Part shown: one piece after another, positions 5,515 to 52,260 of the stretch
Layout of the letters: every line of letters begins with the position of its first letter
How positions within the stretch are numbered: the stretch's first letter is position 1
Source of the DNA: a virus
Reading direction: 5' to 3' (one strand)
Length of the DNA: 53,531 nucleotides
UHGV virus genome: UHGV-0350075
Program-made: the position numbers and the translations under genes
The notes under the pieces: model-generated
What the model was told of the DNA's origin: nothing
What the model saw: the letters and a program-made list of their open reading frames with translations, nothing else
Database searches by the model: none

Positions 5515-5663
5515 TATTTAATCTCCCGTGCTGTTAACACTATGTATAAGGCTTTATTCGCGGCGCTCCACATTTCGGCATCGTGAAGCATTTCCGCTAC
5601 TGCCAGTTTGAATTGAAGCGCCTGAATAACCATAATGTCATCTCCGGATGTTTACATTTTGTA

Positions 5664-5954
5664 TTAATGATAGCGGACTTTATCCAGGGGTTTTTCCCCT
5701 AAATGTCGTGGTTGCGTTGCGTGGTAGTAGCTGCCGCTTTCATTTTCCGTATACCATTTTACTGATCCTTTGCGACGTTCTTTAATGCTATTTGGTTTGC
5801 ATCTTTCCTCGTTTGCAAATCGAATAGCTTTATCCACATTGTCTGTTTTATTGATTGCAGGTGATGATTTTCTTTCGTTTTCTCTTTTTATCCTTCTGCG
5901 TTCCCTGGCATTCATTTTGCTATCACATTTACCATATATAATTGTAACGCTCAT
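5664..5954 (-). CDS. N-like transcription antiterminator (P22 gp24-like)
   Basis: 96 aa; arginine-rich motif NARERRRIKRENERK near N-terminus; first gene left of repressor. Confidence 0.5.
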   Translation of the reverse strand: MSVTIIYGKCDSKMNARERRRIKRENERKSSPAINKTDNVDKAIRFANEERCKPNSIKERRKGSVKWYTENESGSYYHATQPRHLGEKPLDKVRYH

Positions 5955-6010
5955 AATCTGATCTCCGTATATCCTTGATGATACTTAATAAAAAATCATC
6001 TTCGTTAATT

Positions 6011-6048
6011 GCCGCACTTCCAGCGGCTGACCAGATTGTTAATGAGCG
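6011..6048 (-). promoter_or_regulatory. candidate nutL (boxA CGCTCATTAA + boxB hairpin GCCGCTGGAAGTGCGGC)
   Basis: Read on reverse strand upstream of N-like gene; boxA-like decamer followed 11 nt later by 5-bp stem hairpin. Confidence 0.35.
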
Positions 6049-6422
6049 GCTTAACATCTTTCAACTAATCCCGCAATCATCGCCGTTCCCTGCGTGACCT
6101 TGCTCACTCCAAGCAAGCTGACTCGTCGCCTTGCGTGCGGTTTCGTGGGGGATGTAACGCTTTAAACACCCCATGCGCCTTGTTATCAGTGCCGCTTTCG
6201 GTCCCCAATCGGGGAGTTACTCCACGGTTGACAAGGTGTTAAGCCTGATTTTTAAAGTGCCAGGAAGTTGCTTTTGTTACCTGCGCCCTTCCTTTGACTC
6301 GCAATATACGCCCCGTAAAACATCGAGTCAATCCATTTTGTATACTTTTTTAAAATATTTTATATGTCATTGATATTTAAATAATAAATAACGTTTTCTG
6401 TTTACGTTTTGGTGTTTTCCAG

Positions 6423-6448
6423 GCAAAGAAAAGCCGCCATTCGGCGGC
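6423..6448 (-). terminator. intrinsic terminator downstream of repressor gene
   Basis: GCCGCC-attc-GGCGGC hairpin followed on reverse strand by TTTTCTTT, 7 nt after cI stop. Confidence 0.5.
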
Positions 6449-6454
6449 TAATGT

Positions 6455-7102
6455 TTATGGCAGGTTTACGATCTTCGCATCAACCACCACGCCTATAATT
6501 TTTGATTCTGGATTCATAGGGATTGGCGGATACAGCGGATTGAGCGAACGTAAAAGCCTTTGACCTCCATCAATAATCAACTGTTTAAACGTCGGTATCT
6601 GCCCTTCCTCAAGCTGGGCTATAACCAGTTTGCCGTCAATAGCTGGCGCGTGCGGGTCAACAAGTATCATCGTCCCCGCCGGGATGCTTAACCCCTGCGG
6701 CGCGTTCATTGATTCACCTTTGGCAACCAGCCAGTAACTATCATCTGAACAAATAACGCTAGTCGTAACGTGTGGTAATGCTGATCGCCTTGTGTCATCC
6801 ATATTGTTTACTGTGTCCTTCCAGTCAATAACCGGGTAACTACCTAAATCACGCGGCGGTGCGGCCTGAAGTGTATTAGAAACAGAATCATCAATGACCA
6901 TACCATCATGTGTAACAGTGAACTGACGACGCCCAAGCGCCCGCATAATCCGCGCAATATCTTCAAGATTTGGCTCGCGGCGACCGTTAAGCCAGTGTGA
7001 CAGGCCGCCTTTAGTTATCCCCATGAGATCTGCGAGTGAATCCTGACTCATGCCCTGCGCCCGCATGAGCTGCTTTGCTAAGTCATACCATTTTGTTTTC
7101 AT
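6455..7102 (-). CDS. cI: CI-type prophage repressor (HTH + LexA-like S24 peptidase domain)
   Basis: 215 aa; N-terminal HTH, C-terminal GESM...K autocleavage-type motifs; divergent from rightward operon. Confidence 0.85.
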   Translation of the reverse strand: MKTKWYDLAKQLMRAQGMSQDSLADLMGITKGGLSHWLNGRREPNLEDIARIMRALGRRQFTVTHDGMVIDDSVSNTLQAAPPRDLGSYPVIDWKDTVNNMDDTRRSALPHVTTSVICSDDSYWLVAKGESMNAPQGLSIPAGTMILVDPHAPAIDGKLVIAQLEEGQIPTFKQLIIDGGQRLLRSLNPLYPPIPMNPESKIIGVVVDAKIVNLP

Positions 7103-7187
7103 GTCGCTACCCTATAACCTCAAAAAGTTTGATGCAAGTCACAAAACGTGTATTTTAAGCCTTGATCTTAAAATTCCATTTTGTAAA

Positions 7188-7226
7188 CTTGCAGACAAGG
7201 TAAGGCCATACTTGCAAAGACGCAAG
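7188..7226. promoter_or_regulatory. candidate operator palindromes (CTTGcagaCAAG; CTTGCaaagacGCAAG)
   Basis: Two inverted repeats with CTTGC half-sites in the 306-bp region between repressor and first rightward gene. Confidence 0.3.
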
Positions 7227-7266
7227 GAAAAAGATAACGGAAGGCACAAAAAGGCACTTACCTTAA

Positions 7267-7298
7267 GCTCTTTAAAAATCCGGTGTCGCTGCGAAGCG
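7267..7298 (+). promoter_or_regulatory. candidate nutR (boxA GCTCTTTAA + hairpin CGCTgcgaAGCG)
   Basis: boxA-like motif then GNRA-loop hairpin on forward strand upstream of first rightward gene. Confidence 0.3.
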
Positions 7299-7408
7299 AA
7301 AAACAAATATCACGCAACGGCGGGATCTGTTGAGCGGTCAGTCACTGCTATCTAATGCTAATGGGATGCCCGCCCGCGCGTTCACTCTAACCATAGGAGA
7401 AAAACAAG

Positions 7409-7663
7409 ATGAGTATGCACATGATGAATGAAGCATGGAACGTAAAACTTAACAGCCCGATCCAAAAACTTGTCTTAATTGCGTTTGCAGAAAAGGCAGA
7501 CAATAAAGGCCGCGCACATGCTTCACGCGAAGAGATCGCAAAAGTGTGCGAACTGCCACTGCATACTACTGTTGACGCATTAAATTCATTGATCCGCAAA
7601 GGATTCATTAAACGCGCTGACGAATACGGCGACATTTATGACATTGCATTGCCGGAGGAATGA
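7409..7663 (+). CDS. winged-HTH DNA-binding protein (HTH_36-like); first gene of rightward early operon
   Basis: 84 aa; AGGAGA SD 8 nt upstream; pattern KLVLIAFAEKADNKG...EEIAKVCELPLHTTVDALNSLIRKGFI. Confidence 0.55.
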   Translation: MSMHMMNEAWNVKLNSPIQKLVLIAFAEKADNKGRAHASREEIAKVCELPLHTTVDALNSLIRKGFIKRADEYGDIYDIALPEE

Positions 7664-7666
7664 TCT

Positions 7667-8719
7667 ATGAAGTGGTTTAAGCATGATAGCGATGCGAACC
7701 GCGATGAAAAACTTCAAAACGTTTTATTAGATTATGGCCTGGAAGGGTACGGGCTTTATTGGTATTGCCTAGAACTAATAACTTATGACGTAGATCAGCA
7801 CAATCTAACTTTTGACCTACGACATGACGCAAGAATAATTGCGCGAAACGTCGGATCTACTGAAAAACGTATAGAAGAAATGATGAAATACTTCATCGAA
7901 ATTGGTTTGTTTGAATGTTCTCAAGGTCACATAACTTGTTTAAAGTTATTGAAAAGGCTGGACCAATCAATGACTTCTAAAAGCGCTTACAGGGCCGCCA
8001 TAAACACAGCGAAGGAGCAATTAAAATTAGAAAAGTTAATCAATCCAACACAAAAAGGTCATGATAGGGTCATGACCGGGTCAGGAAAGGGTCATGAATT
8101 AGAATTAGAAGTAGAAAAAGAAAGAGAAAAAGATATATACACTTCGTGTATTGTCGAAAATGAACAAAAAATGGTCAATCAGGATGGCGTAAACGAAGCG
8201 GCATTGCGTTGCCTTGCCTTCTACAACGACAAGGCAGGATGCAAATGTCGTGATGCTAAGCCATTCGTAGAACTACTGACAGAAACAAAAACACGTAAAG
8301 CGTATACGGAGGATGAGATCACATTAGTGATTGAGTGGGCTTTAACCCAATGGCGTAGCCGTGGTGGAGTACCTAAGCCTATCAACATTTGCCGGGTAAC
8401 TAAGTTTGATGGGTATTTGGCTGATGCTGAACAATGGCGCAAGCTATCAGCTACTGTAAACGCTGCCGACGTGGTGGAAGCATTTAACAGCACGTTTGAC
8501 GGCCTGTTACCACCTGCCGAACTGGATCGGGATCTTGAACGCAAGATCTATGCGTTCACTGACTACCTGAAAGACAAAAGCATTAACGGCTTTGTCGCCT
8601 ACTTCGAAACGTTCAAAAACACGGCTTCAGATTTTTACTTCGGCAATGGCTTCACTGCGACACTTGATTTTCTGCTTAAACCAAAAACGCTACGTGATAC
8701 GCGCGCTGGCGTTCTTTGA
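7667..8719 (+). CDS. replication initiation / replisome organizer protein (DUF4373-like N-terminus)
   Basis: 350 aa; N-terminus MKWFKHDSDANRDEKL...YGLEGYGLYWYCLELI matches phage replisome-organizer N-domain pattern; precedes helicase. Confidence 0.55.
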   Translation: MKWFKHDSDANRDEKLQNVLLDYGLEGYGLYWYCLELITYDVDQHNLTFDLRHDARIIARNVGSTEKRIEEMMKYFIEIGLFECSQGHITCLKLLKRLDQSMTSKSAYRAAINTAKEQLKLEKLINPTQKGHDRVMTGSGKGHELELEVEKEREKDIYTSCIVENEQKMVNQDGVNEAALRCLAFYNDKAGCKCRDAKPFVELLTETKTRKAYTEDEITLVIEWALTQWRSRGGVPKPINICRVTKFDGYLADAEQWRKLSATVNAADVVEAFNSTFDGLLPPAELDRDLERKIYAFTDYLKDKSINGFVAYFETFKNTASDFYFGNGFTATLDFLLKPKTLRDTRAGVL

Positions 8720-8953: not shown

Positions 8954-9114
8954 CTACCCTTCTACCTTAAAAATCGAAAATTAGCCACCTGATTGCGCTT
9001 CTGGCGCAAAAAAGACACTGCACCCTTACAAGTGGGTTACGCGGTGGGTTTTTGCGTTGTAGCGCGTTTTACGGAAAATAAATATACATTCTGTAAACCG
9101 GAGGAATTAACGTT

Positions 9115-10233
9115 ATGTCACAAAGAAAGATCAGCGATGAACAGTTAATCGCTGAACATAATAACGGTCTGACGTATAAACAGATCGCAGAAAAATATGG
9201 CATGGCAAAACGCAACGTCGAACGCCTGGGCGCACGGTTGGCGAAACGCGGTTTAATATCCACGCGCCGCGCACCGGGTTTTGGCGTCAATGCTGAGTCA
9301 TTGCTCGTCGATAAGGATGGCAATGTGATTATGCGCTGGATTAAAACAGCCCGTGACCGCGATGAAATGGAAATGCTAATGCAATCGGCTTGTGATGCTT
9401 TCACGGAAGAGATACCACGCGCGGAGGCCGTGCCAGTGCCGGAAATTGATTTTCAAAAAAGCCTGGCCCTTTATCCGGTATTCGATCTGCATATCGGGGC
9501 GCTTGCTCATAAAGCTGAATGCGGTGAGAGCTACGACACCGGGATCGCTGAACGCGTGCTAAATGACTTCTTCGACTACGCGGTAGGCGCTGCGCCAATG
9601 TCTGAAAAGGCTGTTTTGCTTCTCGGCGGTGATGTGCTTCACACTGACGGCCTGTTACCAGTGACGCCATCAAGTAATCACGTTTTAGATTGTGATTCAC
9701 GCTACGCAAAACTGGTTTATGTGGCGATCCGGTCGGTCCGGCGTGCGGTCGGGAAGATGTTACTAAATCATAAGGATGTCGAGATCCAGGTATTATCCGG
9801 TAATCACGACCAATCAGGTATGATCTGGCTACGTGCTGCGCTGGCGGCTTTTTACGAAGATGAACCGCGTGTGACGGTTGATGTGTCACCTGCTATCGTC
9901 CATCACACACAGTACGGCAAAACATTTCTTGCTTACCACCACGGGCACACTATCAAAAAGCCAGAAAATTTACTTTCTGCCTGCGTTTCTGACTGGCGGG
10001 AGGATTTCGGCAAGTCGTCGTCTGTTTACGCTCATTGTGGACACTGGCATCACCAACGGCTGATTGAATCATCGTTGGGCGTTGTTGAGTACCACGGCAC
10101 GTTAGCTGGCAAAGACGCTTATTCAACGAATGGCGGCTGGCGGTCGCGGCGGCTGGCTGCGGTAATAATTTACAGTCCTGATCATGGGGAAATCGGGCGC
10201 TTTGTTTATTACCCTGAATATTCCATTTTGTAA
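9115..10233 (+). CDS. HTH domain fused to calcineurin-like metallophosphoesterase domain
   Basis: 372 aa; N-terminal HTH (LTYKQIAEKYGMAKRNVERL); motifs DLHIG, GGDVLHTDG, GNHD, HHGH, GHWHH in phosphoesterase order. Confidence 0.6.
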   Translation: MSQRKISDEQLIAEHNNGLTYKQIAEKYGMAKRNVERLGARLAKRGLISTRRAPGFGVNAESLLVDKDGNVIMRWIKTARDRDEMEMLMQSACDAFTEEIPRAEAVPVPEIDFQKSLALYPVFDLHIGALAHKAECGESYDTGIAERVLNDFFDYAVGAAPMSEKAVLLLGGDVLHTDGLLPVTPSSNHVLDCDSRYAKLVYVAIRSVRRAVGKMLLNHKDVEIQVLSGNHDQSGMIWLRAALAAFYEDEPRVTVDVSPAIVHHTQYGKTFLAYHHGHTIKKPENLLSACVSDWREDFGKSSSVYAHCGHWHHQRLIESSLGVVEYHGTLAGKDAYSTNGGWRSRRLAAVIIYSPDHGEIGRFVYYPEYSIL

Positions 10234-10251
10234 ACCGGAGGCGATGCCATA

Positions 10252-11673
10252 ATGATAACCGAACAAGTAAACTCATTGCGGCAAGAAAGAGAATCAGCGG
10301 TTATCGGTGGCCTGCTGTTAGGTGGGCTTACTCCTAACGCGCAAGATGTTCTCGCTACGCTTGATCCTGAAGTGTTCACTATTCCGCTGTATAAGCGGGC
10401 TTTTGAAATTATCCGGGCGCAAGCCAGAAACAGAAATCTTATCGACGCCTTGCTGGTTGGTGATGAGATTGGCAACGAAAATTTTGTACCGCTGATGCAA
10501 ACGGCGCGATCGTGTCCTTCTGCTGCCAATCTGAAAGGATATGCGCGACTACTACAGGAAGAACACCAGCGGCGGCAAATGCTGGAACTAATGGAAGACA
10601 TTCGCTACAAACTGGAAACGGGGACGCTTGAAGTCGTCAGGGAGACGATGAAAGATTTTGATTCACGGTATTCAAAATTAAAGGTAACAAAAGATCAAAT
10701 TATCCCGGTGCTGTTGCGCGATGCGGTCCAGGAATACACGGAAGTGTTAAGTAAACGCATGGAGTGTGGCGTGAACTCTGACAACATCAAAACAGGGATT
10801 GACCCACTCGACGAAATGTTAGGCGGCATTAACGCTACTGATCTGGTGCTTATCGCCGGACGCCCAGGGTCTGGTAAATCGGCGTTGGCGTTGGCAATTG
10901 CCCGCGCGGCGGCTGAACGTCCATACCCTGGCGGCGAAGGTCAGCGGGTCGGCGTTTTGCTGTTCACGCTTGAAATGTCGCTCGATCAGATGACTGAACG
11001 TGCTATCGCTGGCGCTGGGAACTTATCAACGGATTGCCTACGTAATCCGGTAAAACTGGATGACGAAGGTTGGGCGCACGTCGCCCAGGGAATGAGTGCC
11101 CTTGCCGATCTCGATGTGTGGATTGTTGACGCATCGCAGTTAACGGTCGAGGAAATACGCGCCACCGTCGAACGGATGAAACAGGACCATCCTAACCTGG
11201 GGATGGTAATGATTGACTACATCGGGTTAATGAAGCTGGCTAAGGCCGAACGTCATGATCTCGCCGTAGGGCAATTGTCGTGGTCATTGAAAATGATGGC
11301 GAAAGAGTTGCGCGTGCCAGTGGCGGCGCTGGCGCAATTATCCCGCCGCGTTGAGGAACGACCGAACAAGCGCCCGAACAATTCTGATCTGCGTGATTCC
11401 GGTAATCTTGAACAGGACGCAGACCGGATCATCATGGTCTACCGCGACGGCTACTACAACGAACAATCGGTTGCCCGCGAATATATGGAGATCATCGTTT
11501 CAAAAAACCGTCACGGGAAAACGGGGACTGTTTACCAGCGGTTTGACGATAACGGCAACATCATCCCATGCGACCAGGCCCGCGCGGCGTCCGCTTGCAT
11601 TCAGTCAATGCAACAACGTCCGGCGGCAAGTCGATTCTCCACACGAAACAGCCAGAACAACGCATCTTTTTAA
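10252..11673 (+). CDS. dnaB: DnaB-family replicative DNA helicase
   Basis: 473 aa; Walker A GRPGSGKS, FTLEMS, IDYIGLM; GGAGG SD. Confidence 0.85.
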   Translation: MITEQVNSLRQERESAVIGGLLLGGLTPNAQDVLATLDPEVFTIPLYKRAFEIIRAQARNRNLIDALLVGDEIGNENFVPLMQTARSCPSAANLKGYARLLQEEHQRRQMLELMEDIRYKLETGTLEVVRETMKDFDSRYSKLKVTKDQIIPVLLRDAVQEYTEVLSKRMECGVNSDNIKTGIDPLDEMLGGINATDLVLIAGRPGSGKSALALAIARAAAERPYPGGEGQRVGVLLFTLEMSLDQMTERAIAGAGNLSTDCLRNPVKLDDEGWAHVAQGMSALADLDVWIVDASQLTVEEIRATVERMKQDHPNLGMVMIDYIGLMKLAKAERHDLAVGQLSWSLKMMAKELRVPVAALAQLSRRVEERPNKRPNNSDLRDSGNLEQDADRIIMVYRDGYYNEQSVAREYMEIIVSKNRHGKTGTVYQRFDDNGNIIPCDQARAASACIQSMQQRPAASRFSTRNSQNNASF

Positions 11674-11752
11674 TTAACTTGAGCAAACGGCTTACCGGAA
11701 AGTTGACCGCTTTCTGGTGGCTGTTTTCGCGCTTAAAACGAGGCGAAAAACA

Positions 11753-12310
11753 ATGAGCATTGAACTTGAAGCAAAAATTATCAATATCCTTGAACTTGAT
11801 GGCATCGCAACAATGCACCAGCTACGCCAGAAAACAGGATTATCAGCGGAATACGACGAAGCCGGATGCTTGCCGGAAACAGTTAAACACCTGATCGACA
11901 CTAATCTGGTTGAGCGGGTGTATACATATTTTGGCCCGCGCCGCCGCTTGCTGGGCTATCGAATTAAATATTTATACGAACAACGACGCGAGCGTGTAGC
12001 CGCGTTATTTACTGGCTACAACGTTAGAAAGCGAATGAGAGATATTAGCGCGGAAACTGGCATTCCGTGGAATTACCTTTCGCGCACGCTGCGTTTAATG
12101 GTGCTGGATGAAACGCTTTGCATAGATACCAATAAACACGGCCTTAATTTTTACTCACTGTTTAAACCTGGTCGCTTTGGTCACGCTAATGATCTCGCGT
12201 TTGATTTTGACAGCCGCCTGAACGAATACCGGAAAAATAACGGCCTGCTACCGGATAAACCAGTATTTGAGATCGAAAAACTTAACGGGGAAACGGGGTT
12301 AGAATTATGA
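11753..12310 (+). CDS. hypothetical protein
   Basis: Track ORF 11717..12310 trimmed to ATG 11753 (MSIELEAK...) with GAGG SD. Confidence 0.5.
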   Translation: MSIELEAKIINILELDGIATMHQLRQKTGLSAEYDEAGCLPETVKHLIDTNLVERVYTYFGPRRRLLGYRIKYLYEQRRERVAALFTGYNVRKRMRDISAETGIPWNYLSRTLRLMVLDETLCIDTNKHGLNFYSLFKPGRFGHANDLAFDFDSRLNEYRKNNGLLPDKPVFEIEKLNGETGLEL

Positions 12311-13346: not shown

Positions 13347-13997
13347 ATGACGAAGAAAACCCCTTTTGCAATAGGCGCAATGTTCCACCGCTTCCGTGGT
13401 GATATTCAGCCTTTTGAAGTAACCACGTTTTCAAGTTATTACGATTTTGGGACGGAGTATTACGCCGGATCTAAGGTAGGCGGTGAATCTTATACGCTGA
13501 TGGCTAATACGTGGCGCTTTGTGCGTTACTCTGAAAAGGATGATGACGGTATGAATAAAGAAAGTGAAATCATTGATGAATTAATCGAAGATGAGCGCCA
13601 TGATTGCGATGCGCCGGAAGTTACGGAATGGAAACCAGGAGAAAAGCCGCCGTGCGGCGTGTGGCTTGATTGTATTGGATTAGCAAGTGATAGAGTGATT
13701 GATGTCGTTAAGTTTTTCTACCTGGGCGATAAGTGGTCTATTGCTCACAGTAAGTTAGAAACGGGTATAGAAACACCGATTGCATGGAAACAATACTCAT
13801 ACCGCATTCACATTGACCCGAAAGAAAAAGCAATGACACGAATTGCGTTTGCGCTGGCTGTTGAGGTTATTGGTGAAGATGCGGCAAAAGAGATTAACTT
13901 TAACCGCGACAACGAATTTTCGCGCGATTGGCGCAATATGGCAAAAGCCATTATTAATGGCGATATTCCTTTTACTAATTACAATGGTGATGAGTAA
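13347..13997 (+). CDS. hypothetical protein
   Basis: Track ORF 216 aa; no motif recognised. Confidence 0.5.
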   Translation: MTKKTPFAIGAMFHRFRGDIQPFEVTTFSSYYDFGTEYYAGSKVGGESYTLMANTWRFVRYSEKDDDGMNKESEIIDELIEDERHDCDAPEVTEWKPGEKPPCGVWLDCIGLASDRVIDVVKFFYLGDKWSIAHSKLETGIETPIAWKQYSYRIHIDPKEKAMTRIAFALAVEVIGEDAAKEINFNRDNEFSRDWRNMAKAIINGDIPFTNYNGDE

Positions 13998-14215
13998 TGG
14001 ATAAGATCGGGACAATACTTATTAACCGTGAGCAAGTGCAAAAAATGTTAGGCGGGCTTAGCAAGTCCGCCTTTTTTAAGCTCGTTAAAAAATGGAAAGA
14101 AGCGGGAACTCCTTTCCCTGAACCTGTAAAGGGGATGCCAGCATTAAAGCGCGGGGGATCTCTTTACCGTTATCAGGACGTTATTTCATTTTGTAAATCG
14201 ATGGGCTTCATGTAG
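13997..14215 (+). CDS. putative excisionase-like HTH DNA-binding protein
   Basis: 72 aa; Xis/AlpA-like pattern (INREQVQKMLGGLSKSAFFKLVKK...); convergent with int, 3' ends overlap. Confidence 0.4.
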   Translation: MDKIGTILINREQVQKMLGGLSKSAFFKLVKKWKEAGTPFPEPVKGMPALKRGGSLYRYQDVISFCKSMGFM

Positions 14216-15628: not shown

Positions 15629-15632
15629 AAAG

Positions 15633-15660
15633 AAACGAGGCGTTAGCCTCGTTTCGCGCG
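15633..15660 (-). terminator. intrinsic terminator after tail-fibre gene
   Basis: ACGAGGC-gtta-GCCTCGT hairpin followed on reverse strand by TTTCTTTTTGTGT. Confidence 0.5.
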
Positions 15661-19140: not shown

Positions 19141-19185
19141 CGCAATGACTCCATTATGTTAATTAACGGAATAATTCTACCATTT

Positions 19186-19201
19186 TGTGATCTGCGTTAC
19201 A
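19186..19201. promoter_or_regulatory. CRP-like site TGTGATCTGCGTTACA
   Basis: 8/10 match to TGTGA-N6-TCACA, 45 nt upstream of tail-fibre start; part of CCATTTTGTGATCTGCGT motif shared with 26624 and 31524. Confidence 0.35.
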
Positions 19202-19299
19202 TTTTTGACGTATACAAAATGTATTTATTGATTTATGTCAATGTTGCGTAAATGCGGTTTATGGATACTACAAACAACGAAACAACGGAGGGTAAGACA

Positions 19300-26605: not shown

Positions 26606-26623
26606 TTTCTCACCTTCTGATTT

Positions 26624-26639
26624 TGTGATCTGCGTCACG
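26624..26639. promoter_or_regulatory. CRP-like site TGTGATCTGCGTCACG
   Basis: 9/10 match to TGTGA-N6-TCACA, immediately upstream of L SD. Confidence 0.4.
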
Positions 26640-26734
26640 CTAAATCATACCAAAATGGATTGATCGCGGTTTATACAATATGTATATTTTACTCAAACGG
26701 AAGCACAGTTAACAAAATGGCGCGGAGGTGTGAG

Positions 26735-27258: not shown

Positions 27259-27507
27259 ATGGGGCGGCGCAATCACGGTGATTATGTGTACACGTTGAAA
27301 CAGGCCGCCCGCCTCATCGGTTATCATGAACACGAATTTATTGATTTGCTGATTGAGCGCGGGATACTGTATCAGGTCTGCTTAACGCTGTACCCGAAAG
27401 CGAAATACCTACAGGAAAAGTTATTCATCATCATGACGGATGAAAACCAGGTGAATCATTCATTCGTCACTGATAAGGGATTGACATACCTGAAGGGGGC
27501 GTTATGA
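27259..27507 (+). CDS. putative HTH DNA-binding protein (moron islet A)
   Basis: 82 aa; HTH-like YTLKQAARLIGYHEHEFIDLLIERGIL. Confidence 0.4.
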   Translation: MGRRNHGDYVYTLKQAARLIGYHEHEFIDLLIERGILYQVCLTLYPKAKYLQEKLFIIMTDENQVNHSFVTDKGLTYLKGAL

Positions 27508-27584
27508 GATGTGCGAAAATTACGTTATGGAAGTGATTATTATCATCATTGGATTGTTATGTATTCTGCTATCGACACTATAAA

Positions 27585-27601
27585 CCCCGCTTCGCGCGGG
27601 G
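27585..27601. terminator. bidirectional hairpin terminator
   Basis: CCCCGC-ttcgc-GCGGGG with T-rich flanks on both strands, between convergent islet A and reverse-strand gene. Confidence 0.4.
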
Positions 27602-27607
27602 TCGTGT

Positions 27608-28158: not shown

Positions 28159-28190
28159 AAAACCCCCATAAGTTACATTTTGTATATATA

Positions 28191-28215
28191 TTTACGCGCT
28201 TCTACGCGAAAAATG
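28191..28215. promoter_or_regulatory. conserved 25-bp box TTTACGCGCTTCTACGCGAAAAATG
   Basis: 22/25 identical to box at 40378..40402 upstream of portal; lies upstream of M. Confidence 0.4.
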
Positions 28216-28326
28216 AGATCTTCATCACAATGATTATAGCTAGTTTACAAAATGGCTTCACATAGTACGCAACAAGATGTATATAGAAAGCAAGAAGAAA
28301 AGCAGTACCAACGAAGGAGGCCCAAA

Positions 28327-28482
28327 ATGAAACGCTATGTAGTGGTAATGCTAAACAACGCATTCGAACAAGTGGAAATAGCAATCGTTAAGGGTTTCGA
28401 CGACGCATTCAAATACGGTCAATTCATGATGAATGCAAAAGAAGATGAATACCGGGACTTCTTCCTGAAGGCACTTAACTAA
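28327..28482 (+). CDS. hypothetical protein (moron islet B)
   Basis: Track ORF trimmed to ATG 28327 after AGGAGG SD; candidate sigma70 promoter TTCACA-17-TATATA upstream. Confidence 0.45.
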   Translation: MKRYVVVMLNNAFEQVEIAIVKGFDDAFKYGQFMMNAKEDEYRDFFLKALN

Positions 28483-28499
28483 GGATGATGGGGTGAGTT

Positions 28500-28754
28500 A
28501 TGAAACTGGTAGCGATTGACAAAAATCTGAAAGCACAGAAAAACGCGCCGGGACATGTAGTCAAAAAAGCAAAGGAACTTTTGAACGCGTTTTTAAACAA
28601 GAATGCGTCACCCAAAAAATTGAAAGACGGTTACGGCTACGCCTTCCGCGCCAATTTAGACTGGCGAGTCTATAGCCAGGATCTGAAAGAGTGGGTGATT
28701 GTTGAACACCATAAATTCAATGAATTGTCTGGCGTTCGCGGTTGCCATAAGTGA
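28500..28754 (+). CDS. hypothetical protein (moron islet B)
   Basis: Track ORF 84 aa; basic; 17 nt after previous gene. Confidence 0.45.
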   Translation: MKLVAIDKNLKAQKNAPGHVVKKAKELLNAFLNKNASPKKLKDGYGYAFRANLDWRVYSQDLKEWVIVEHHKFNELSGVRGCHK

Positions 28755-29266: not shown

Positions 29267-29295
29267 GCCCCGGCATTGTGCCGGGGTTTTGTTTA
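29267..29295. terminator. bidirectional intrinsic terminator
   Basis: GCCCCGGC-attgt-GCCGGGG then TTTTGTTTATTT; between convergent islet B and tape-measure gene. Confidence 0.55.
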
Positions 29296-31506: not shown

Positions 31507-31523
31507 GATTGTTACTCCACTTT

Positions 31524-31539
31524 TGTGATCTGTGTATCT
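31524..31539. promoter_or_regulatory. CRP-like half-palindrome TGTGATCTGTGTATCT
   Basis: Left half TGTGATCT conserved, 18 nt upstream of tape-measure start; CCATTTTGTATAAAG copy at 31572. Confidence 0.3.
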
Positions 31540-31764
31540 ATTTTATACAAATTGTCTTTACTATAACGACTCCATTTTGTATAAAGAGGCTAAAGGAAAG
31601 GGATAGAGTAAAGGGATTTAAAATGACCGGATAAACCGGAGGAAGTAAAAGAGGACAAGAAAATGAAAAACGCAAACTATCGTCCCAACGAACATGAACG
31701 CTATGCGGACTTCATAGAAGAAATGTTAAAAGCACTTAAAAACAAAAATTAATCGAGGCGGGTT

Positions 31765-32265: not shown

Positions 32266-32292
32266 GGCCCGGATCTACCGGGCTTTTTCTTG
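32266..32292. terminator. intrinsic terminator after secreted-protein moron
   Basis: GCCCGG-atcta-CCGGGC followed by TTTTTCTT. Confidence 0.5.
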
Positions 32293-45112: not shown

Positions 45113-45113
45113 G

Positions 45114-45314: not shown

Positions 45315-45329
45315 AGATTTACCTCCAAC

Positions 45330-45357
45330 AAAGCAAAAACCCGGCGCGGTGCCGGGT
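45330..45357 (-). terminator. intrinsic terminator 20 nt upstream of holin (tR'-like, candidate Q target)
   Basis: CCCGGC-accgc-GCCGGG followed on reverse strand by TTTTTGCTTTGTT, then GGAGG SD and holin ATG. Confidence 0.55.
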
Positions 45358-45419
45358 AATTACAATTTCGCATTGTTAGGAAATATTTTAATCTATTTGT
45401 TTTTTATGCGCGATTATGG

Positions 45420-45617
45420 TTACAAATCACCAACCTTGCGCCAGTATCCGTGATTAACCATCGTGATAACTTCTTTCGCTGTCATAGGTAAAAATGGCTC
45501 ATGCCACCGATCAAGACTACCAAGACGCATCAAAACGTGCTCACCTTCGAGGCGGTAATAAGCTCGCGTAGCCAATGACTGATAAACGCCATCATATTCA
45601 TGGTCGCTATTTCCCAT
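45420..45617 (-). CDS. hypothetical protein
   Basis: Track ORF 65 aa. Confidence 0.4.
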   Translation of the reverse strand: MGNSDHEYDGVYQSLATRAYYRLEGEHVLMRLGSLDRWHEPFLPMTAKEVITMVNHGYWRKVGDL

Positions 45618-46994: not shown

Positions 46995-47073
46995 CTTCTT
47001 GCCTCCCCTCCGCCTTTCCGTGGCTTATATATAACAAAATGGCACTGTCGAAACAATGCCATTTCGTATACAT

Positions 47074-47089
47074 TGTGATACAGATCACA
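47074..47089. promoter_or_regulatory. CRP-like palindrome TGTGATACAGATCACA
   Basis: Perfect TGTGA-N6-TCACA in 114-bp gap 46995..47108; flanked by ACAAAATGGCA and TGCCATTT. Confidence 0.45.
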
Positions 47090-47777: not shown

Positions 47778-47781
47778 GATA

Positions 47782-48836: not shown

Positions 48837-48840
48837 ATTG

Positions 48841-49047: not shown

Positions 49048-49246
49048 CCTTCCTTAATTCCTTAATTTCAATATTGCGTAACCGGACGTCGCACGGCGTT
49101 TCAGATTTACCAGTAAGCGCCAGCGCCAGGTTTTCAGGTGTCGTGCAAAGGATTATCTCTTTACCTGTGCTAAATTTAATTTCTATGCGGATCTCGTTTT
49201 CGTCACCGCACAATACACGGTTAATTGACAGGCCAGCTTTTTTCAT
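49031..49246 (-). CDS. hypothetical protein
   Basis: Track ORF 71 aa. Confidence 0.45.
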   Translation of the reverse strand: MKKAGLSINRVLCGDENEIRIEIKFSTGKEIILCTTPENLALALTGKSETPCDVRLRNIEIKELRKGEDEK

Positions 49247-49587
49247 TGCTCACCCCACCTTAACATCCAATTCACATCACATTTAATTGCGAATACCTTC
49301 ACCGGATCAGGACCGAATAATGGATGTGTGATAGTTTTAACTTCATAGCCAAAATAAGGAAGGTTAATAATCCTGTGTTTTTCGTGGTTGGCAGGATATC
49401 CCCATTTAATAATCAGGCGTTCATATTCCCGCCCTTCCAGACGTTTACGCCAATAGTCATTATAAAGCCGGTATTCCTCCACCTTCTTTCCAGTCCATAT
49501 GGCGTGGAAATATTCCCCTTTCAGATTCAAATGCAGGTCTTTACTTGCCATCGCTATGATCCTGTAAACAGTCGTTATAGCCTTCAA
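49243..49587 (-). CDS. ASCH/DUF3850-like domain protein
   Basis: 114 aa; pattern HLNLKGEYFHAIWTGKKVEEYRLYNDYW resembles ASCH-like fold proteins; true start may be MASKDL. Confidence 0.45.
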   Translation of the reverse strand: MKAITTVYRIIAMASKDLHLNLKGEYFHAIWTGKKVEEYRLYNDYWRKRLEGREYERLIIKWGYPANHEKHRIINLPYFGYEVKTITHPLFGPDPVKVFAIKCDVNWMLRWGEQ

Positions 49588-49819
49588 TGTATCCGGTTAA
49601 TCCGGTGTTACTCACTGACCATTCAGCAGAACGGCGCTTGATGGCTTCGTCCATCGTCATAACATCGACCGGATCTCTTAAGCCTATATATTTCCGCAAT
49701 TCCGTAATTATCACCGCCCTTAATTGTTGTGTATTTGAGTACGCCCTAGCCTTATCAGTTATTCCGTTTACAAGATTCCTAAATTCATGTTCTTTTAATT
49801 TAGGTTTCATCATCGTCAC
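49541..49819 (-). CDS. hypothetical protein
   Basis: Track ORF 92 aa. Confidence 0.45.
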   Translation of the reverse strand: MTMMKPKLKEHEFRNLVNGITDKARAYSNTQQLRAVIITELRKYIGLRDPVDVMTMDEAIKRRSAEWSVSNTGLTGYIEGYNDCLQDHSDGK

Positions 49820-50000
49820 CCCGTTTGTAAATTTTGACTGGCTTAATTGGGATGGCTGGTAATTCTCCTTCGTTTAACGCGCTCGCCATACCCAATATTA
49901 AGCGTGCTTCAGTACCAGTGACTTTCTTACACCATGCGCCGCCTGTTTTATCTTGAAATAAGATAACAGCAAACTGATCGTTTATTTCCAGCTTACCCAT
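49800..50000 (-). CDS. hypothetical protein
   Basis: Track ORF 66 aa directly downstream of Q. Confidence 0.45.
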   Translation of the reverse strand: MGKLEINDQFAVILFQDKTGGAWCKKVTGTEARLILGMASALNEGELPAIPIKPVKIYKRGDDDET

Positions 50001-50722
50001 TATTCACCCCGTGTCACTCGTTTAATCTCACTTTCCGCGCGGGCCTCTTCTTTGAATAGCTCCGCTATGGCGTCTTCATAGAAAACCCGGTATTTCTTCC
50101 ACCATGTTGATCTGCTTACCGGAAAAACAAGCTGATTAACCGCCTGCCGGACAAGATCTACAGGGAAACGTGAGTACCCGCGCCCGCCGCAATGCTGGCA
50201 CGTTTTAAACACTGGCATTTCCGCCGCTTCGCTGGCTGCTTTATCCGGTATTTCGCCGCGCCCCTTGCATTGTTTACAATGATTGCGAACCTTTCCATGC
50301 CCCTTGCATTTTTTGCAAAGGTGTTTTTCTCCGTAGTCGTCAAACGTAAATTTATATCCGCCGCACTCCATACAAGTTTTTTCCGTCGCGGCGCTTTGGC
50401 AATAATCCCGAAACGCGAAAACGGCAACAAGAATAATGAGATCATTGCGTTGTGCCTCGTTCAGTTCCATGACGTATTCATAATCTTTTGCCATAGCTCT
50501 TAAACGCTCTGTAAGCAAAACTACGGCCCTGTGTTTTTCGGCTTGTGATAGTTCCATCTTTCCCAAAAAAGCGCTATATCCAAGCTCTACGCGCGATTGC
50601 GCCATACCCGCAGCGGTTAGCGCATCCGTCGTATTAAGAGCGTCCGGGGACGTGCCCCGGCTTTCGTCAGATAATCGCGGTGATTTAGGAAAGTGGAATT
50701 TTAGAATGGATTCTAAATTCAT
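50000..50722 (-). CDS. Q: late-gene antiterminator Q (lambda Q-like)
   Basis: 240 aa; N-terminus MNLESILKFHFPKSPRLSD...AAGMAQS matches lambda Q as recalled; Cys-rich zinc-binding region. Confidence 0.8.
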   Translation of the reverse strand: MNLESILKFHFPKSPRLSDESRGTSPDALNTTDALTAAGMAQSRVELGYSAFLGKMELSQAEKHRAVVLLTERLRAMAKDYEYVMELNEAQRNDLIILVAVFAFRDYCQSAATEKTCMECGGYKFTFDDYGEKHLCKKCKGHGKVRNHCKQCKGRGEIPDKAASEAAEMPVFKTCQHCGGRGYSRFPVDLVRQAVNQLVFPVSRSTWWKKYRVFYEDAIAELFKEEARAESEIKRVTRGE

Positions 50723-50904
50723 TATTTGCCCTCATAACGTGCCGCCAGCCGTTTACGATCAGAAATGGATTGCACCAGCTTTCTTTCGAACTCTTTCAGC
50801 GCAAGTAATTCGCGCATGTGGAAAGCCTGGATTTGTCGGACCGTCTCTAAATCACGCTCGTCGCGCTGAATATCTATTTGCAGATCTTTAACTTCGTTTT
50901 TCAT
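50722..50904 (-). CDS. hypothetical coiled-coil protein
   Basis: Track ORF 60 aa between rusA and Q. Confidence 0.45.
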   Translation of the reverse strand: MKNEVKDLQIDIQRDERDLETVRQIQAFHMRELLALKEFERKLVQSISDRKRLAARYEGK

Positions 50905-51308
50905 TGCTCACCCCACATATTAGTCGCGTATTCGTCAATATCCGGTAGTAGGTCGCCGCGTTCGCGGATCTTAATAAACAAGCGTCCGCCTTTTACCTTC
51001 CGGCAGCGAACAATTTTTATTGAGTCGATTTGCCCGTCATCCTTCCAGAATCCGGCATAAGTAAGGCTGTCAAAAAGGCATTTAGGGATATTATCCAGAT
51101 CTCTGATCCGGTTATCCGGCGGCGCGGCGTAAATGGCAATTGCCAGTCGGCAAGGTAGGTTAATATTTAAATTTAATAGCTCGATGATGTCTCTTACTTG
51201 TTCCCTGTATTCCTTCCCCACTTTGCTGATATAGTGAAAACCGCGCGAATGTCGGTAATAGCGATTATTCGATGGCGGGTAAGGCAGGCTAAAAGAATAT
51301 TCATTCAT
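50901..51308 (-). CDS. rusA: Holliday junction resolvase RusA
   Basis: 135 aa; close to E. coli RusA as recalled (PPSNNRYYRH, RDLDN, FDSLTYAGFWKDD, KGGRL). Confidence 0.85.
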   Translation of the reverse strand: MNEYSFSLPYPPSNNRYYRHSRGFHYISKVGKEYREQVRDIIELLNLNINLPCRLAIAIYAAPPDNRIRDLDNIPKCLFDSLTYAGFWKDDGQIDSIKIVRCRKVKGGRLFIKIRERGDLLPDIDEYATNMWGEQ

Positions 51309-51910
51309 GCTGCCTTTCTCCTTAAGGCGTCCAATTTAGCCTGATAGATGTTTATTAGCTCCTTACATTCTGCAATCGTCCATTTATGCGTATCATTGTT
51401 GTTCTCCAGAGCTACCACCCTGGCGAGGCCAATTTTTCGAATCAGCGCCGGGCGATACCCTCCGATGTTGCCGTCTAGTGTCTGGTTGCAGTGCCTACAT
51501 TGCTTATGGCAATTATCCTCGTTGAAGCGAAGGTGTCCGGCGGCGGCTACCGTCCTGTAATGACCTGCATCCCACCCGCATTGCTCACCGTAGTAAGTCC
51601 CGCAAGATATACACGGCAAGCGCGCGTCACGTTCGCGAATATAGGCGTTAAATACATTTTGAACTTGTTTGATCCAATAACTACGCGGATTTAACTGTTT
51701 ACGCTTCCGGTTGCGTTCTTCCCTCTGGCTATCACGGCGTTTCTTCCGCTCCATAGCCTTCATAGCCTTCTCACGGTCGCGGCATAGCTGGTCAAACTTC
51801 AGTTCTTCCAGACATTCATCGCTGCACCACGTTTGATTGTGATATTTAGGCTCAAAAAAAACGCCGCAGCATTTGCAACGGCGTCTTATGGGTTTTTTAG
51901 GGTTTTGCAT
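51305..51910 (-). CDS. ninG: NinG/Rap recombination protein
   Basis: Track ORF (GTG 52000) trimmed to ATG 51910; RRRCK..C, PRSYWIKQ, LPCISCGT, WDAGHYRT, LRFNE, HKQC as in lambda NinG. Confidence 0.8.
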   Translation of the reverse strand: MQNPKKPIRRRCKCCGVFFEPKYHNQTWCSDECLEELKFDQLCRDREKAMKAMERKKRRDSQREERNRKRKQLNPRSYWIKQVQNVFNAYIRERDARLPCISCGTYYGEQCGWDAGHYRTVAAAGHLRFNEDNCHKQCRHCNQTLDGNIGGYRPALIRKIGLARVVALENNNDTHKWTIAECKELINIYQAKLDALRRKAA

Positions 51911-51924
51911 AAAAACCACCCCGA

Positions 51925-52101
51925 TTATTTTTGATTCTCTGTTTCGTTCAGCCTTTCGGCGTGTCCGGCCCTTAGCCAATGTTCTAAGCATTCGTTGCAC
52001 TCGTTACAGCCTCCTTTCTTCGTGCTGCATACATTGCACATTGCACGCATAACGCTTTCTCGTTCATAGTCGTCATGCCATTGGTAATTATCAAAAGGCA
52101 T
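51925..52101 (-). CDS. NinF-like small zinc-ribbon protein (58 aa)
   Basis: Own translation MPFDNYQWHDDYERESVMRAMCNVCSTKKGGCNECNEC...; 15 nt upstream of ninG, same size and position as lambda NinF. Confidence 0.4.
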   Translation of the reverse strand: MPFDNYQWHDDYERESVMRAMCNVCSTKKGGCNECNECLEHWLRAGHAERLNETENQK

Positions 52102-52222
52102 AATGCTCTCTCCTTTTCAGGTGATTTCTACGCATTTCAGCGCTGCCGGATTTTTAAAGAGCATTTTGTTTGCTTGAAGTATACAAAATGGATACGTGCT
52201 AACAAGGTGTAAAGCGCCATTA

Positions 52223-52238
52223 TGTGACATTCATCACA
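52223..52238. promoter_or_regulatory. CRP-like palindrome TGTGACATTCATCACA
   Basis: Perfect TGTGA-N6-TCACA in 159-bp gap 52102..52260; flanked by GTATACAAAATGG and GCCATTTTGTAAAC. Confidence 0.45.
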
Positions 52239-52260
52239 CAATGACGCCATTTTGTAAACT

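Follow-up and report, generated by a model that had tools for sequence, protein, structure and literature searches.

An asymmetric 13-base element repeated between the genes of a temperate coliphage: a possible shared promoter core

The window, that is, the whole stretch of 53,531 nucleotides analysed here, is the full genome of a temperate coliphage belonging to the mEpimmI group (mEp021, MagusPhagus), and it carries about 20 intergenic repeats of a 13-base sequence that are real and kept in relatives. We give roughly even odds (about 0.5) to the reading that this motif is a shared promoter core, made of the proximal spacer and the -10 hexamer, to which one regulator probably docks as well. 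In the searchable literature we found nothing that describes the motif.

CATTTTGTR occurs 15 times versus 2.0 ± 1.4 expected from dinucleotide shuffles, none of 100 shuffles reaching 15, and CCATTTTGTAAAC, with up to two mismatches allowed, gives 16 matches versus 2.3 expected. The commonest 8-mer and 9-mer in the window are CATTTTGT and CCATTTTGT, respectively, with about a quarter of the 24 CATTTTGT matches being plain ATG start contexts. Two start-codon contexts (...ACAAAATGG), at 7089 and 35254, had been taken for in-gene copies at 7086 and 35263; CATTTTGT is present in both, but they are not members of the family. The over-represented intergenic family proposed by the sequence-only reading is nevertheless borne out by the enrichment over shuffles and by positions kept in related phages, and each coordinate it listed holds a copy or a recognisable variant, although a few positions (31520, 7086, 35263) were somewhat off.

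In the author-annotated genome of mEp021, 17 of 22 copies lie outside genes (P=5e-12), and 11 copies have a gene start 17-221 nt downstream. Copies hold their positions in 44 viral contigs, and the two motif-bearing regions that were tested were found again in 28 and 35 E. coli genomes; the conservation of position across related phages on which the original claim was staked is thus present. Pairs of copies are kept ahead of differing moron cargoes and differing replication modules, and relatives lose homology to one another immediately upstream of the helicase copy and immediately past the moron copies. Such breaks would suit a module-boundary "linker" kept by inter-phage recombination, and the several CATTTTGT matches that are ...ACAAAATG start codons would suit a by-product of A-rich start contexts and base composition. 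We hold this to be the least probable of the explanations considered, since the enrichment survives dinucleotide shuffles, the 13-mer persists where the sequences around it do not, and the fixed spacings to TTG and to palindromes described below would be left unexplained. In co-directional intergenic regions copy orientation is split only 6 to 4 and is therefore not evidence; that five copies (5654, 6333, 14186, 47059, 52247) face away from any gene speaks against the promoter reading.

The repeated unit, (T)CCATTTTGTA(A/T)AC(T), is 13-14 nt long and asymmetric, and information content falls to background on both sides of it. Strongly conserved positions in it, C5 and T13 among them, are not mutually complementary, and the element is therefore intrinsically asymmetric. 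It had been suggested that two half-sites form a palindrome for a dimeric protein; no copy carries the full CCATTTTGTATACAAAATGG and no fixed-distance partner for the unit was found, so the proposed 20-bp palindrome does not exist. Most likely the motif marks the core of many promoters of the phage itself, and not a palindrome bound by a dimeric protein. Against this, only about half of the copies have the T at -7.

Four otherwise dissimilar regions share one layout: a CRP-consensus palindrome, 17-18 nt, TTGNNN, 8 variable nt, CCATTTTG and TAWACT. Their features are as follows.
7176..7189, plus strand: P7176 motif CCATTTTGTAAAC, read with its hexamer as CCATTTTG-TAAACT, candidate core of the early rightward promoter
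7128..7143, no strand: CRP-like palindrome TTTGATGCAAGTCACA, centre 48 nt upstream of the P7176 hexamer
7136-7150, minus strand: weak reverse copy CACGTTTTGTGAC, overlapping that palindrome and facing the repressor gene
52178..52191, minus strand: P52179 motif and hexamer CCATTTTG-TATACT, -35 TTGTTA 16 nt upstream
52151-52163: nutR2 boxA TGCTCTTTAAAAA, beginning 14 nt past the P52179 hexamer
52223..52238, no strand: perfect CRP-consensus palindrome TGTGA-N6-TCACA, centre 47 nt upstream of the P52179 hexamer
52247..52259, plus strand: copy CCATTTTGTAAAC, facing away from P52179, just past the methyltransferase stop codon
47029..47042, minus strand: P47031 motif CCATTTTG-TTATAT, -35 TTGTTT 8 nt upstream of the motif start
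47059..47071, plus strand: reverse-facing copy CCATTTCGTATAC, exactly 16 nt from the 47029..47042 copy and adjoining the P47031 -35
47074..47089, no strand: perfect CRP-consensus palindrome, 18/22 matches to AAATGTGATCTAGATCACATTT, centre 47 nt upstream of the P47031 hexamer
2222..2235, minus strand: P2223 motif CCGTTTTG-TAAACT, 36 nt upstream of gene 1968..2186
2247-2259, minus strand: second copy near P2223, ACATTTTGTACTG
2267..2282, no strand: perfect CRP-consensus palindrome, centre 47 nt upstream of the P2223 hexamer

The palindrome centres thus lie 47, 47, 47 and 48 nt upstream of the hexamers, and across 47 genomes and loci only distances of 23/24 and 47/48 occur; relative to the -35, we take the distance to be within 1 bp of lac P1 geometry. 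Footprints across relatives show sequence kept at the -35 TTG, in the proximal spacer and in the hexamer, with variation in the palindrome centre and in the 8 bases of the distal spacer. At P7176, whose -35 TTGATC (7162-7167) is followed by a 16-nt spacer, 26 sequence variants keep TTGAYC and CCATTNTGTAAACTT, and the 8 nt between vary freely. At P52179, TTGT and (G)TATCCATTTTGTATACT are nearly invariant and TATACT fully so in 32 variants, the distal spacer being free, and conservation stops exactly at the final T of TATACT. The half-sites of the palindrome at 52223..52238 are largely kept, its centre is free and the first T of its left half varies. The same palindrome forms the top of a 16-bp RNA hairpin (52213-52248, minus strand; -25.7 kcal/mol, z = -4.0) that is predicted to be terminator t4, and therefore the "CRP site" there may be partly terminator. 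The outward-facing copy at 52247, whose reverse complement adjoins a weak promoter-like site (GCGTCA-17-CATAAT), is less strictly conserved than its partner at 52179. The gene downstream of P47031 starts at about 46993.

From this geometry one may propose a phage-specific family of sigma-70-type promoters to which the core would belong, its 3' part TAWACT serving as the -10 hexamer and its 5' part CCATTTTG as the proximal spacer, at about -20 to -13. We infer that transcription starts at the copies, that the palindromes bind CRP and that one factor contacts CCATTTTG. To our knowledge sigma-70 has no use for the CCATTTTG half; if one factor contacts this invariant half, be it a regulator of the phage or RNA polymerase in an unusual way, the phage could control all these promoters together. 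The promoters would head most transcription units, though not those of the strong N-gene and Q-dependent late promoters. Among them would be the promoter of the early rightward operon (replication) and, inside the long leftward operon, three more, each with a CRP-consensus site upstream at a class-I-like distance, one of the three feeding the extra nut site nutR2. Nut sites lie downstream in two of the four layout regions, the nutL boxA being at 7267, about 80 nt downstream of P7176. Such sites have been described for mEp021 (PMC11893012), and an internal promoter at P52179 would explain why the group needs a third one. Downstream of the P2223 equivalent lies ipe, a gene for which expression in lysogens has been reported (PMC11893012); this fits an internal promoter that is not silenced by the repressor.

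The frequency with which the motif is fused to or adjoins CRP-consensus sites, together with the variants CCATTTTGTGATC (19180) and CCATTATGTGAC (52217) that merge the two, may instead suggest that it binds a host protein, either a nucleoid-associated or global regulator or through a CRP half-site-like element (TTTTGTAA versus AAATGTGA). The motif presumably resembles OmpR, Fis and LacI-family half-sites in part, but we know of no E. coli consensus that fits it without a gap or a critical-base mismatch. It was, moreover, absent from the three lambdoid-like contigs checked and not multi-copy in the other viral contigs searched, and we regard a host protein as quite improbable.

Against a promoter core, most copies have no -35, and a consensus scan scores only P52179 as a promoter (listed as TTGTTA-16-TATACT). 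In 21 variants of P2223, CCGTTTTGT is invariant and the hexamer varies (TAAACT, TGAACT, TAAGCC, TAAGAA and others); a pure -10 element would show the opposite. Greater constraint on the 5' half than on the hexamer, and a full 13-mer kept even in copies facing no gene, would be accounted for if the motif were a protein-binding site, namely a stoperator-like operator of the lambda-CI-like repressor or of another phage regulator; bound there, such a protein would keep all lytic transcription units of the prophage silent or blocked. The motif's overlap with the -10 would then be of the same kind as that of lambda OR1 with pR; the conserved block of P52179, GTATCCATTTTGTATAC, is 17 bp at about -24 to -8, the stretch that OR1 and OL1 presumably occupy in lambda. 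The immunity region, where this idea finds further evidence, and the stretch up to the integrase gene hold the following features.
6333..6345, plus strand: copy CCATTTTGTATAC, 5' end 1 nt from the -35 of the N-like gene's promoter, in opposite orientation
6331..6303, minus strand: strong leftward promoter of the N-like gene, TTGACT-17-TATATT
5654..5666, plus strand: copy ACATTTTGTATTA at the stop codon of the N-like gene
8057-8097: four iterons GGGTCATGA of an O-like replication initiator
14186..14198, plus strand: weak copy TCATTTTGTAAAT where 13997..14215 and the integrase gene overlap at their 3' ends, probably non-functional

In the immunity region five copies of at least 14 bits lie within 1.5 kb, all on one strand, and TCCATTTTGTA is the only element of at least 9 nt common to both early-promoter regions that the repressor must control. 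At the 6333 copy CATTTTGTATAC is invariant in 35 variants. Four helix-turn-helix proteins had been put forward as binders, of which the repressor (6455..7102) is still a candidate; a 38%-identical CI of other phages adjoins three TATGTATAC repeats. The other three were dropped: 7409..7663 is the winged-helix N-terminal part of the O-like initiator, whose iterons bear no relation to the motif, 9115..10233 encodes a repair exonuclease and 27259..27507 a KilAC anti-repressor fragment. Both domains of the repressor resemble lambda CI (3bdn, E=1e-19), and for such a protein one would expect a dyad operator, which the asymmetric motif is not. Nor are there two to three adjacent sites at 20-24 bp spacing; at the N-gene promoter the copy sits at about -37 to -49, upstream of the -35, where it would be badly placed to repress; copies run both with and against transcription; and copies stand ahead of morons and of ipe, genes whose expression in lysogens is expected or reported. 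In its pure form an operator also does not predict the fixed 47/48-nt palindrome distance, and we consider the operator, the main rival of the promoter core, unlikely.

The tail region returns the argument to the promoter core.
19180..19222: face-to-face pair, CCATTTTGTGATC (plus strand, 19180) and ACATTTTGTATAC (minus strand, 19210-19222), between a tail-fibre gene (start 19140, minus strand) and a lipoprotein moron (19252, plus strand)
26708-26720 and 26646-26658, minus strand: copies CCATTTTGTTAAC and CCATTTTGGTATG, upstream of a minor-tail gene (start 26605)
28175..28255: face-to-face pair, ACATTTTGTATAT (28175-28187, plus strand) pointing to a ParE-like toxin module and CCATTTTGTAAAC (28243-28255, minus strand) pointing to a minor-tail gene (start 28158)
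31543..31584: back-to-back pair, ACAATTTGTATAA (31543-31555, minus strand, degenerate) pointing to the tape-measure gene and CCATTTTGTATAA (31572-31584, plus strand) pointing to a moron
32267-32283, 29268-29286, 27584-27602 and 15632-15655: terminator-like hairpins

At two of these sites the earlier positions can be made more exact: 26651 falls in the CCATTTTGG variant at 26646-26658, with a further reverse copy at 26708, and 31520 has only a CACTTTTGTGATC variant, the actual reverse copy being the degenerate one at 31543-31555. The 19180..19222 pair is kept in mEp021 despite differing flanks, and the relatives' equivalent of the 31543..31584 pair, TTATACAAAATGG-N16-CCATTTTGTATAA, stands ahead of at least four different moron cargoes. 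In the tail region a terminator-like hairpin lies upstream of every minus-strand copy and another closes the gene block that the copy heads, and a moron lies downstream of every plus-strand copy. The copies may therefore include a restart promoter for each tail sub-operon past a terminator, and promoters of the opposite-strand morons. The motif had been placed upstream of most late-gene blocks; since no copy lies ahead of the head, terminase and lysis genes (32.3-46.9 kb), this holds for the tail sub-operons only.

A sub-class of copies is probably not made of promoters, being fused to a shared ribosome-binding-site cassette. The GGAGG noted directly after two of them is indeed there.
9086..9098, plus strand: ACATTCTGTAAAC, fused to the Shine-Dalgarno (GTAAACCGGAGG) of gene 9115..10233
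10223..10235, plus strand: CCATTTTGTAAAC, fused to the Shine-Dalgarno of the helicase gene 10252..11673

A start 7 nt past the hexamer would land behind the Shine-Dalgarno in both. The CATTTTG half of the 9086 copy is lost in relatives, and at least three different genes are found upstream of the 10223 copy, which is kept behind all of them. The opposite strand of 5654..5666, AAAATGTAAACATCCGGAG, is also such a cassette. With TGTAAAC adjoining a Shine-Dalgarno at 9086, 10223 and near 5640 (minus strand), and with GUAAAC past the 2223 copy pairing with GUUUAC, where A-to-G changes in relatives keep G.U pairs, the motif might act in RNA as a translation-initiation or processing element of polycistronic transcripts. 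This appears very improbable: many copies lie upstream of any plausible same-strand transcript or in inverted pairs, their distances to start codons (16 to 220 nt) share no common value, no Rfam family matches, and the geometry of CRP site and -35 belongs to the DNA level.

Among known systems, the promoter core resembles lambda pR/OR1 and pL/OL1 in that a block at about -24 to -8, including part of the -10 hexamer, is common to several promoters of one temperate coliphage, and this phage has a CI-like repressor, an N-like antiterminator with nut sites and a Q-like protein. However, lambda operators are dyad-symmetric and occur in triplets at two promoters only, whereas the element here is asymmetric, mostly in single copies or variable pairs, and present in about 20 copies that include the tail region and morons. 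The stoperators of mycobacteriophage L5 and other cluster A phages (gp71 sites) are likewise 13-bp, asymmetric and found throughout a temperate phage genome in about 20-30 copies in short intergenic regions, one of them overlapping an early lytic promoter; but L5 sites have one orientation relative to transcription, mixed here, and the L5 repressor is a small non-CI protein, while the candidate here is lambda-CI-like with an S24 domain. Class I CRP promoters of the lac P1 type share TGTGA-N6-TCACA centred 25-26 nt upstream of the -35, a weak or partial -35 and a centre free to vary in relatives. Unlike them, four putative ones occur in one phage, all with the same extra 8-bp spacer element, and one palindrome doubles as a terminator hairpin. 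The P1 Lpa-dependent late and T4 MotA-dependent middle promoters are likewise many and dispersed, without a good -35, and combine a -10-like hexamer with a conserved phage-specific element close upstream; the element here differs in adjoining the hexamer, in not being an inverted repeat and in occurring also in the early rightward promoter, with no activator gene identified.

The genome (53.5 kb, complete) is that of a temperate, Nus-dependent and non-lambdoid coliphage of the mEpimmI group, which was recently proposed as a family and is common in the human gut. Its identity to Escherichia phage MagusPhagus is 96-99.8%, and to mEp021, mEp010, mEp013, mEp044, mEp515 and mEp554 86-89%. Its layout follows from the ORF list, from family searches and from the way MagusPhagus and mEp021 are annotated:

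5664..5954, minus strand: N-like antiterminator
6455..7102, minus strand: lambda-CI-like repressor, with the likeness covering both domains
7409 to about 14215, rightward: replication operon
50000..50722, in the leftward direction: Q-like protein

Transcription is leftward over a very long stretch, from the N-like gene through the window ends, and takes in methyltransferases, NinG, the Q-like protein, the genes for lysis, head, tail and tail fibre, and the integrase gene. Several morons (opposite-strand cargo genes) interrupt the tail region, including a lipoprotein and a ParE-like toxin module; the toxin (28500..28754) is accompanied by a small upstream ORF (region 28252-28754), and a KilAC anti-repressor fragment at 27259-27507 is also part of the moron cargo. 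The paper defining the group describes three nut sites and a few terminators, and does not mention promoters, operators, CRP or a repeated motif (PMC11893012).

The motif that recurs between these genes is real, and it is most likely a cis-element of transcription initiation. Its over-representation, claimed by the sequence-only reading, holds against dinucleotide shuffles: CATTTTGTR occurs 15 times where 2.0 are expected. The 13-mer, allowing two mismatches at most, occurs 16 times (2.3 expected), and the commonest 8-mer and 9-mer of the genome are CATTTTGT and CCATTTTGT. About a quarter of the raw 8-mer matches are merely A-rich start-codon contexts. A matrix scan of the window returned 17 copies of at least 16 bits, and no good copy in the head, terminase and lysis block at 32.3-46.9 kb. 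When 20 copies are aligned, a compact, asymmetric unit emerges, (T)CCATTTTGTA(A/T)AC(T), with information at background on either side of these 13-14 positions; we treat it as a 5' half, CCATTTTG, and a 3' hexamer, TAWACT. Pair counts over the same 20 copies reveal no partner at a fixed distance. Both the information profile and the pair counts speak against the 20-bp palindrome of two half-sites that had been proposed for a dimeric protein, and this palindrome is never realised; in copies containing GTATAC, AAAATGG does not come next.

Most copies are intergenic in mEp021, whose annotation is the authors' own and which is 87.6% coding: 17 of 22 matches fall outside genes (P=5e-12), and for 11 matches a co-oriented gene starts 17-221 nt downstream. 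We dropped orientation bias as evidence for promoters, since between co-directional genes six copies are co-oriented with transcription and four opposed by our own count, and in divergent intergenic regions either orientation faces a gene. The copies at 5654, 6333, 47059 and 52247 have no gene in their direction, yet the whole 13-mer is kept.

The expectation that copies would hold their positions in related phages was borne out around the repressor gene, where they occupy the same places in 44 viral contigs. Exactly 35 complete E. coli genomes contain the repressor gene, the same number contain the region of the putative promoter P52179, and 28 contain a tail-junction motif pair. Whichever of at least three different genes lies upstream, the copy before the helicase gene persists, and the tape-measure junction retains its pair ahead of at least four different moron cargoes. 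A recombination linker, joining exchangeable modules, or an artefact of composition is a lesser rival. Relatives found by cI and the N-like protein among viral contigs, and by cI and two motif regions among E. coli genomes, form one cohesive homoimmune group only, and those reached via the portal protein are more distant and mosaic. Matches to the motif pairs in viral contigs outside the group were terminator hairpins or chance occurrences in AT-rich genomes.

We put at about 0.5 the probability that the motif is a shared promoter core, comprising the proximal spacer and the -10, for most transcription units. The argument rests on four otherwise dissimilar regions, the putative promoters P7176(+), P52179(-), P47031(-) and P2223(-), which have one layout in common: a CRP-consensus palindrome, 17-18 nt, TTGNNN, 8 nt, CCATTTTG, TAWACT. 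From palindrome centre to hexamer the distances are 47, 47, 47 and 48 nt, and over all relatives only 23/24 and 47/48 are seen. The footprints of P52179 (32 variants) and P7176 (26 variants) have the pattern expected for a promoter. The TTG of the -35 is kept, as are the proximal spacer and the hexamer, and the palindrome half-sites are largely conserved apart from a variable first T in the left half. The palindrome centre and eight distal spacer bases are free; at P52179 conservation ends directly after the final T of TATACT. A conserved -35-like hexamer lies 16-18 nt upstream at P7176, P52179, P47031 and the copy at 31572, and at P2223 in relatives; most remaining copies have none. In the hexamer T(-12) and A(-11) are found in 17 of 20 copies, and T(-7) in just 10. 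It is constant in the P7176 and P52179 classes, and in the P2223 class it drifts with CCGTTTTGT invariant. Two other frames were tried and rejected. Read as a -35 element (TTGTAA/TTGTAT), the motif has a -10-like hexamer 17-18 nt downstream only at 26708 and 6333 by eye, and in an extended -10 frame (TGn + AWACTT) the TATAC copies would put T at -11.

Palindromes of the form TGTGA-N6-TCACA with at most one mismatch number 9 against 1.2 expected (three perfect, six with one mismatch), and the following seven adjoin motif copies:

2267-2282: perfect CRP-consensus palindrome
47074-47089: perfect CRP-consensus palindrome
52223-52238: perfect CRP-consensus palindrome
7128-7143: palindrome with one mismatch
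19186-19201: palindrome with one mismatch
26624-26639: palindrome with one mismatch
28214-28229: palindrome with one mismatch

The centre of the CRP-like site lies 25-26 nt before the -35, which relative to the -35 is within 1 bp of the lac P1 position. Counted from the predicted start it would be between -59.5 and -61.5, according to where transcription begins; a class I site is expected near -61.5 (or -71.5 and so on) with the helix face unchanged. This arrangement suggests that cAMP-CRP may feed into the early and middle transcription of the phage; four of the motif promoters would be CRP-assisted, and two of them would feed nut sites. The boxA sequences found here are as follows:

7267-7283, plus strand: boxA of nutL, (T)GCTCTTTAAAAATCCGG
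52147-52163, minus strand: boxA of nutR2, TGCTCTTTAAAAATCCGG
6244-6260, minus strand: boxA of nutR1, a related sequence, GCACTTTAAAAATCAGG

They agree with the published positions of nutL, nutR1 and nutR2, and our comparison of the boxA sequences agrees with the reported near-identity of nutL and nutR2 (PMC11893012). NutR2 starts 14 nt past the P52179 hexamer, and nutL about 80 nt past that of P7176. Transcripts from the putative P52179 would never carry nutR1 and would thus need a further nut site, so we infer that an internal promoter just upstream of nutR2 would account for the third one. An RNA hairpin (52213-52248, minus strand; 16 bp with three G.U pairs, sense strand only, -25.7 kcal/mol, z = -4.0) has the palindrome at 52223 as its top. 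A short U run follows the hairpin, which lies directly upstream of the putative internal promoter and nutR2 and is probably the terminator t4 predicted for mEp021.

Within the tail region, each minus-strand copy comes after a terminator-like hairpin and before a gene block that ends in another, and each plus-strand copy precedes a moron. The hairpins are:

32267-32283: terminator-like hairpin
29268-29286: terminator-like hairpin, bidirectional
27584-27602: terminator-like hairpin
15632-15655: terminator-like hairpin

Three tail junctions have their two elements face to face, which would separate the predicted starts by between a few and 40 bp. Two copies stand back to back, exactly 16 nt apart, both at the tape-measure junction and at 47030-47071. 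In these pairs, and at the strong leftward promoter of the N-like gene, the -35 is separated by 1-2 nt from a reverse-oriented copy, which stands where an activator or UP-element contact would lie.

6303-6331, minus strand: promoter of the N-like gene, near-consensus TTGACT-17-TATATT

Around this promoter is an imperfect palindrome of 38 bp (TTGACTCG...CGAGTCAA), and relatives do not conserve its left arm. On the minus strand AC(G/A)CAGATCACAAAA is a third repeated element; it occurs at 19186-19200, 26620-26636 and 31521-31536, in the leaders of three tail genes (starts 19140, 26605 and 31506) between motif copy and Shine-Dalgarno sequence. After the copy at 2223, a hairpin GUAAAC-N12-GUUUAC (2204-2227, minus strand), in which A-to-G changes of relatives keep G.U pairing, hints at RNA structure in the leader of gene 1968..2186. 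The late-promoter candidate before the holin gene (45315-45420, with a terminator at 45339-45357) contains no good motif copy. A Q-binding element (QBE) would be present once, downstream of Q where a promoter precedes the lysis genes, with a terminator after it. We rejected this identity for the motif, which is multi-copy and absent from the late-promoter candidate.

Some copies belong to a different context. Those at 9086 and 10223 are fused to a Shine-Dalgarno sequence, so a transcription start there would be useless, and in relatives only TGTAAACCGGAGG is kept of the 9086-type copy. A cassette TGTAAAC(..)CGGAGG-N10-ATG is common to three genes (9092-9117, 10229-10254 and about 5633-5660 on the minus strand) and is conserved in relatives even with a different upstream gene. 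We read these two copies, together with the similar sequence near 5640 on the minus strand, as a ribosome-binding-site cassette. That the motif at large is an element acting in RNA is a lesser rival, and no Rfam family matches it. The cassette copies, the scarcity of -35s, T(-7) in only half of the copies, the drift at P2223, the copies without a gene and the hairpin at 52223 together say that the 5' half CCATTTTG is under strong selection of its own. Since sigma-70 is not known to read this position, some factor probably contacts it, and the promoter core would probably double as the site of one putative regulator. A host factor as reader of the motif is another lesser rival; the sites of sigma-32, sigma-54 and sigma-S are not known to match it without gaps or critical mismatches, and nor are those of OmpR, Fis, IHF, PhoP, CpxR and ArcA or the half-sites of LacI/GalR and LexA.

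The main rival, which we consider unlikely, is that the motif is purely an operator or stoperator-like site of the repressor. That protein is lambda-CI-like over both domains, TCCATTTTGTA is the sole element of at least 9 nt common to both early-promoter regions, and the conserved 17-bp block of P52179 lies where OR1 lies in lambda. However, the element is asymmetric: the 14-17 bp dyad of a lambda-type CI/Cro operator is not seen, the conserved positions are not mutually complementary, and in a 17-bp frame the P52179 copy alone reaches six of eight symmetric pairs (3-5 in the others). Nor are there two or three adjacent sites per early promoter; each has one strong copy, with weak copies 40 and 71 bp away. 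Further against an operator, the copy at the N-gene promoter is on the upstream side of the -35, and copies precede the morons and ipe, for which expression in lysogens is expected or reported; ipe is the reported cause of haemolysis by mEp021 lysogens.

Among other binders, the 84-aa HTH protein (7409..7663) had been put forward, and it turns out to be the N-terminal domain of an O-like initiator with iterons of its own (GGGTCATGA, four copies, 8057-8097) that are unrelated to the motif. The initiator appears split into this winged-helix ORF and one of 350 aa, and the likely origin (8057-8110), four 11-bp iterons and then an AT-rich repeat, lies inside gene 7667..8719. A weak MarR-like protein (11717..12310) and Q are formally possible candidates; no cro-like gene was seen in the window. 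ACTTGCA occurs three times between repressor and replication genes (7189(+), 7211(+) and 7133-7139(-)), forming small dyads (CTTGCagaCAAG, CTTGCaaagacGCAAG) just downstream of P7176, and the repeats at 7189-7229 are alternative candidate repressor operators. In three viral contigs from unrelated phages with a 38%-identical CI (L049-L051), three same-orientation copies of TATGTATAC lie between cI and a divergent gene, with one further repeat about 2.5 kb away; this is a conventional operator layout on a GTATAC-containing site.

The transcription map of the group has so far been limited to three nut sites and a few terminators, and the motif supplies a testable one, which would show what units have their own promoter and why there is a third nut site. 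It bears on the expression of tail genes where terminators and opposite-strand morons intervene, and its layout suggests that host carbon status, through cAMP-CRP, may enter early and middle phage transcription. If the CCATTTTG half is a regulator site, there would be genome-wide control via a single asymmetric site in a lambda-CI-type coliphage. One may go further and speculate, in a reading that we hold to be rather improbable, that one 13-bp element at -20 to -7 of about fifteen promoters, and reversed beside other -35s, docks a single regulator that switches all of the genome on or off at once. Such a system would be stoperator-like and wired to cAMP-CRP via four class-I-positioned sites, in an enterobacterial temperate phage using N and Q; the regulator could be the lambda-CI-like repressor in an unorthodox non-dyad mode, or a small phage protein.

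As a phage-specific promoter or operator consensus the motif is of a known kind; in the searchable literature we found it nowhere described, a full-text search with its sequence giving nothing relevant. With the L5-type stoperators it shares a 13-bp asymmetric site present in many copies in short intergenic regions, but there the sites have a single orientation relative to transcription, whereas here, between co-directional genes, six are co-oriented and four opposed. The likeness to class I CRP promoters lies in the CRP consensus, which is matched at the motif regions of this phage.
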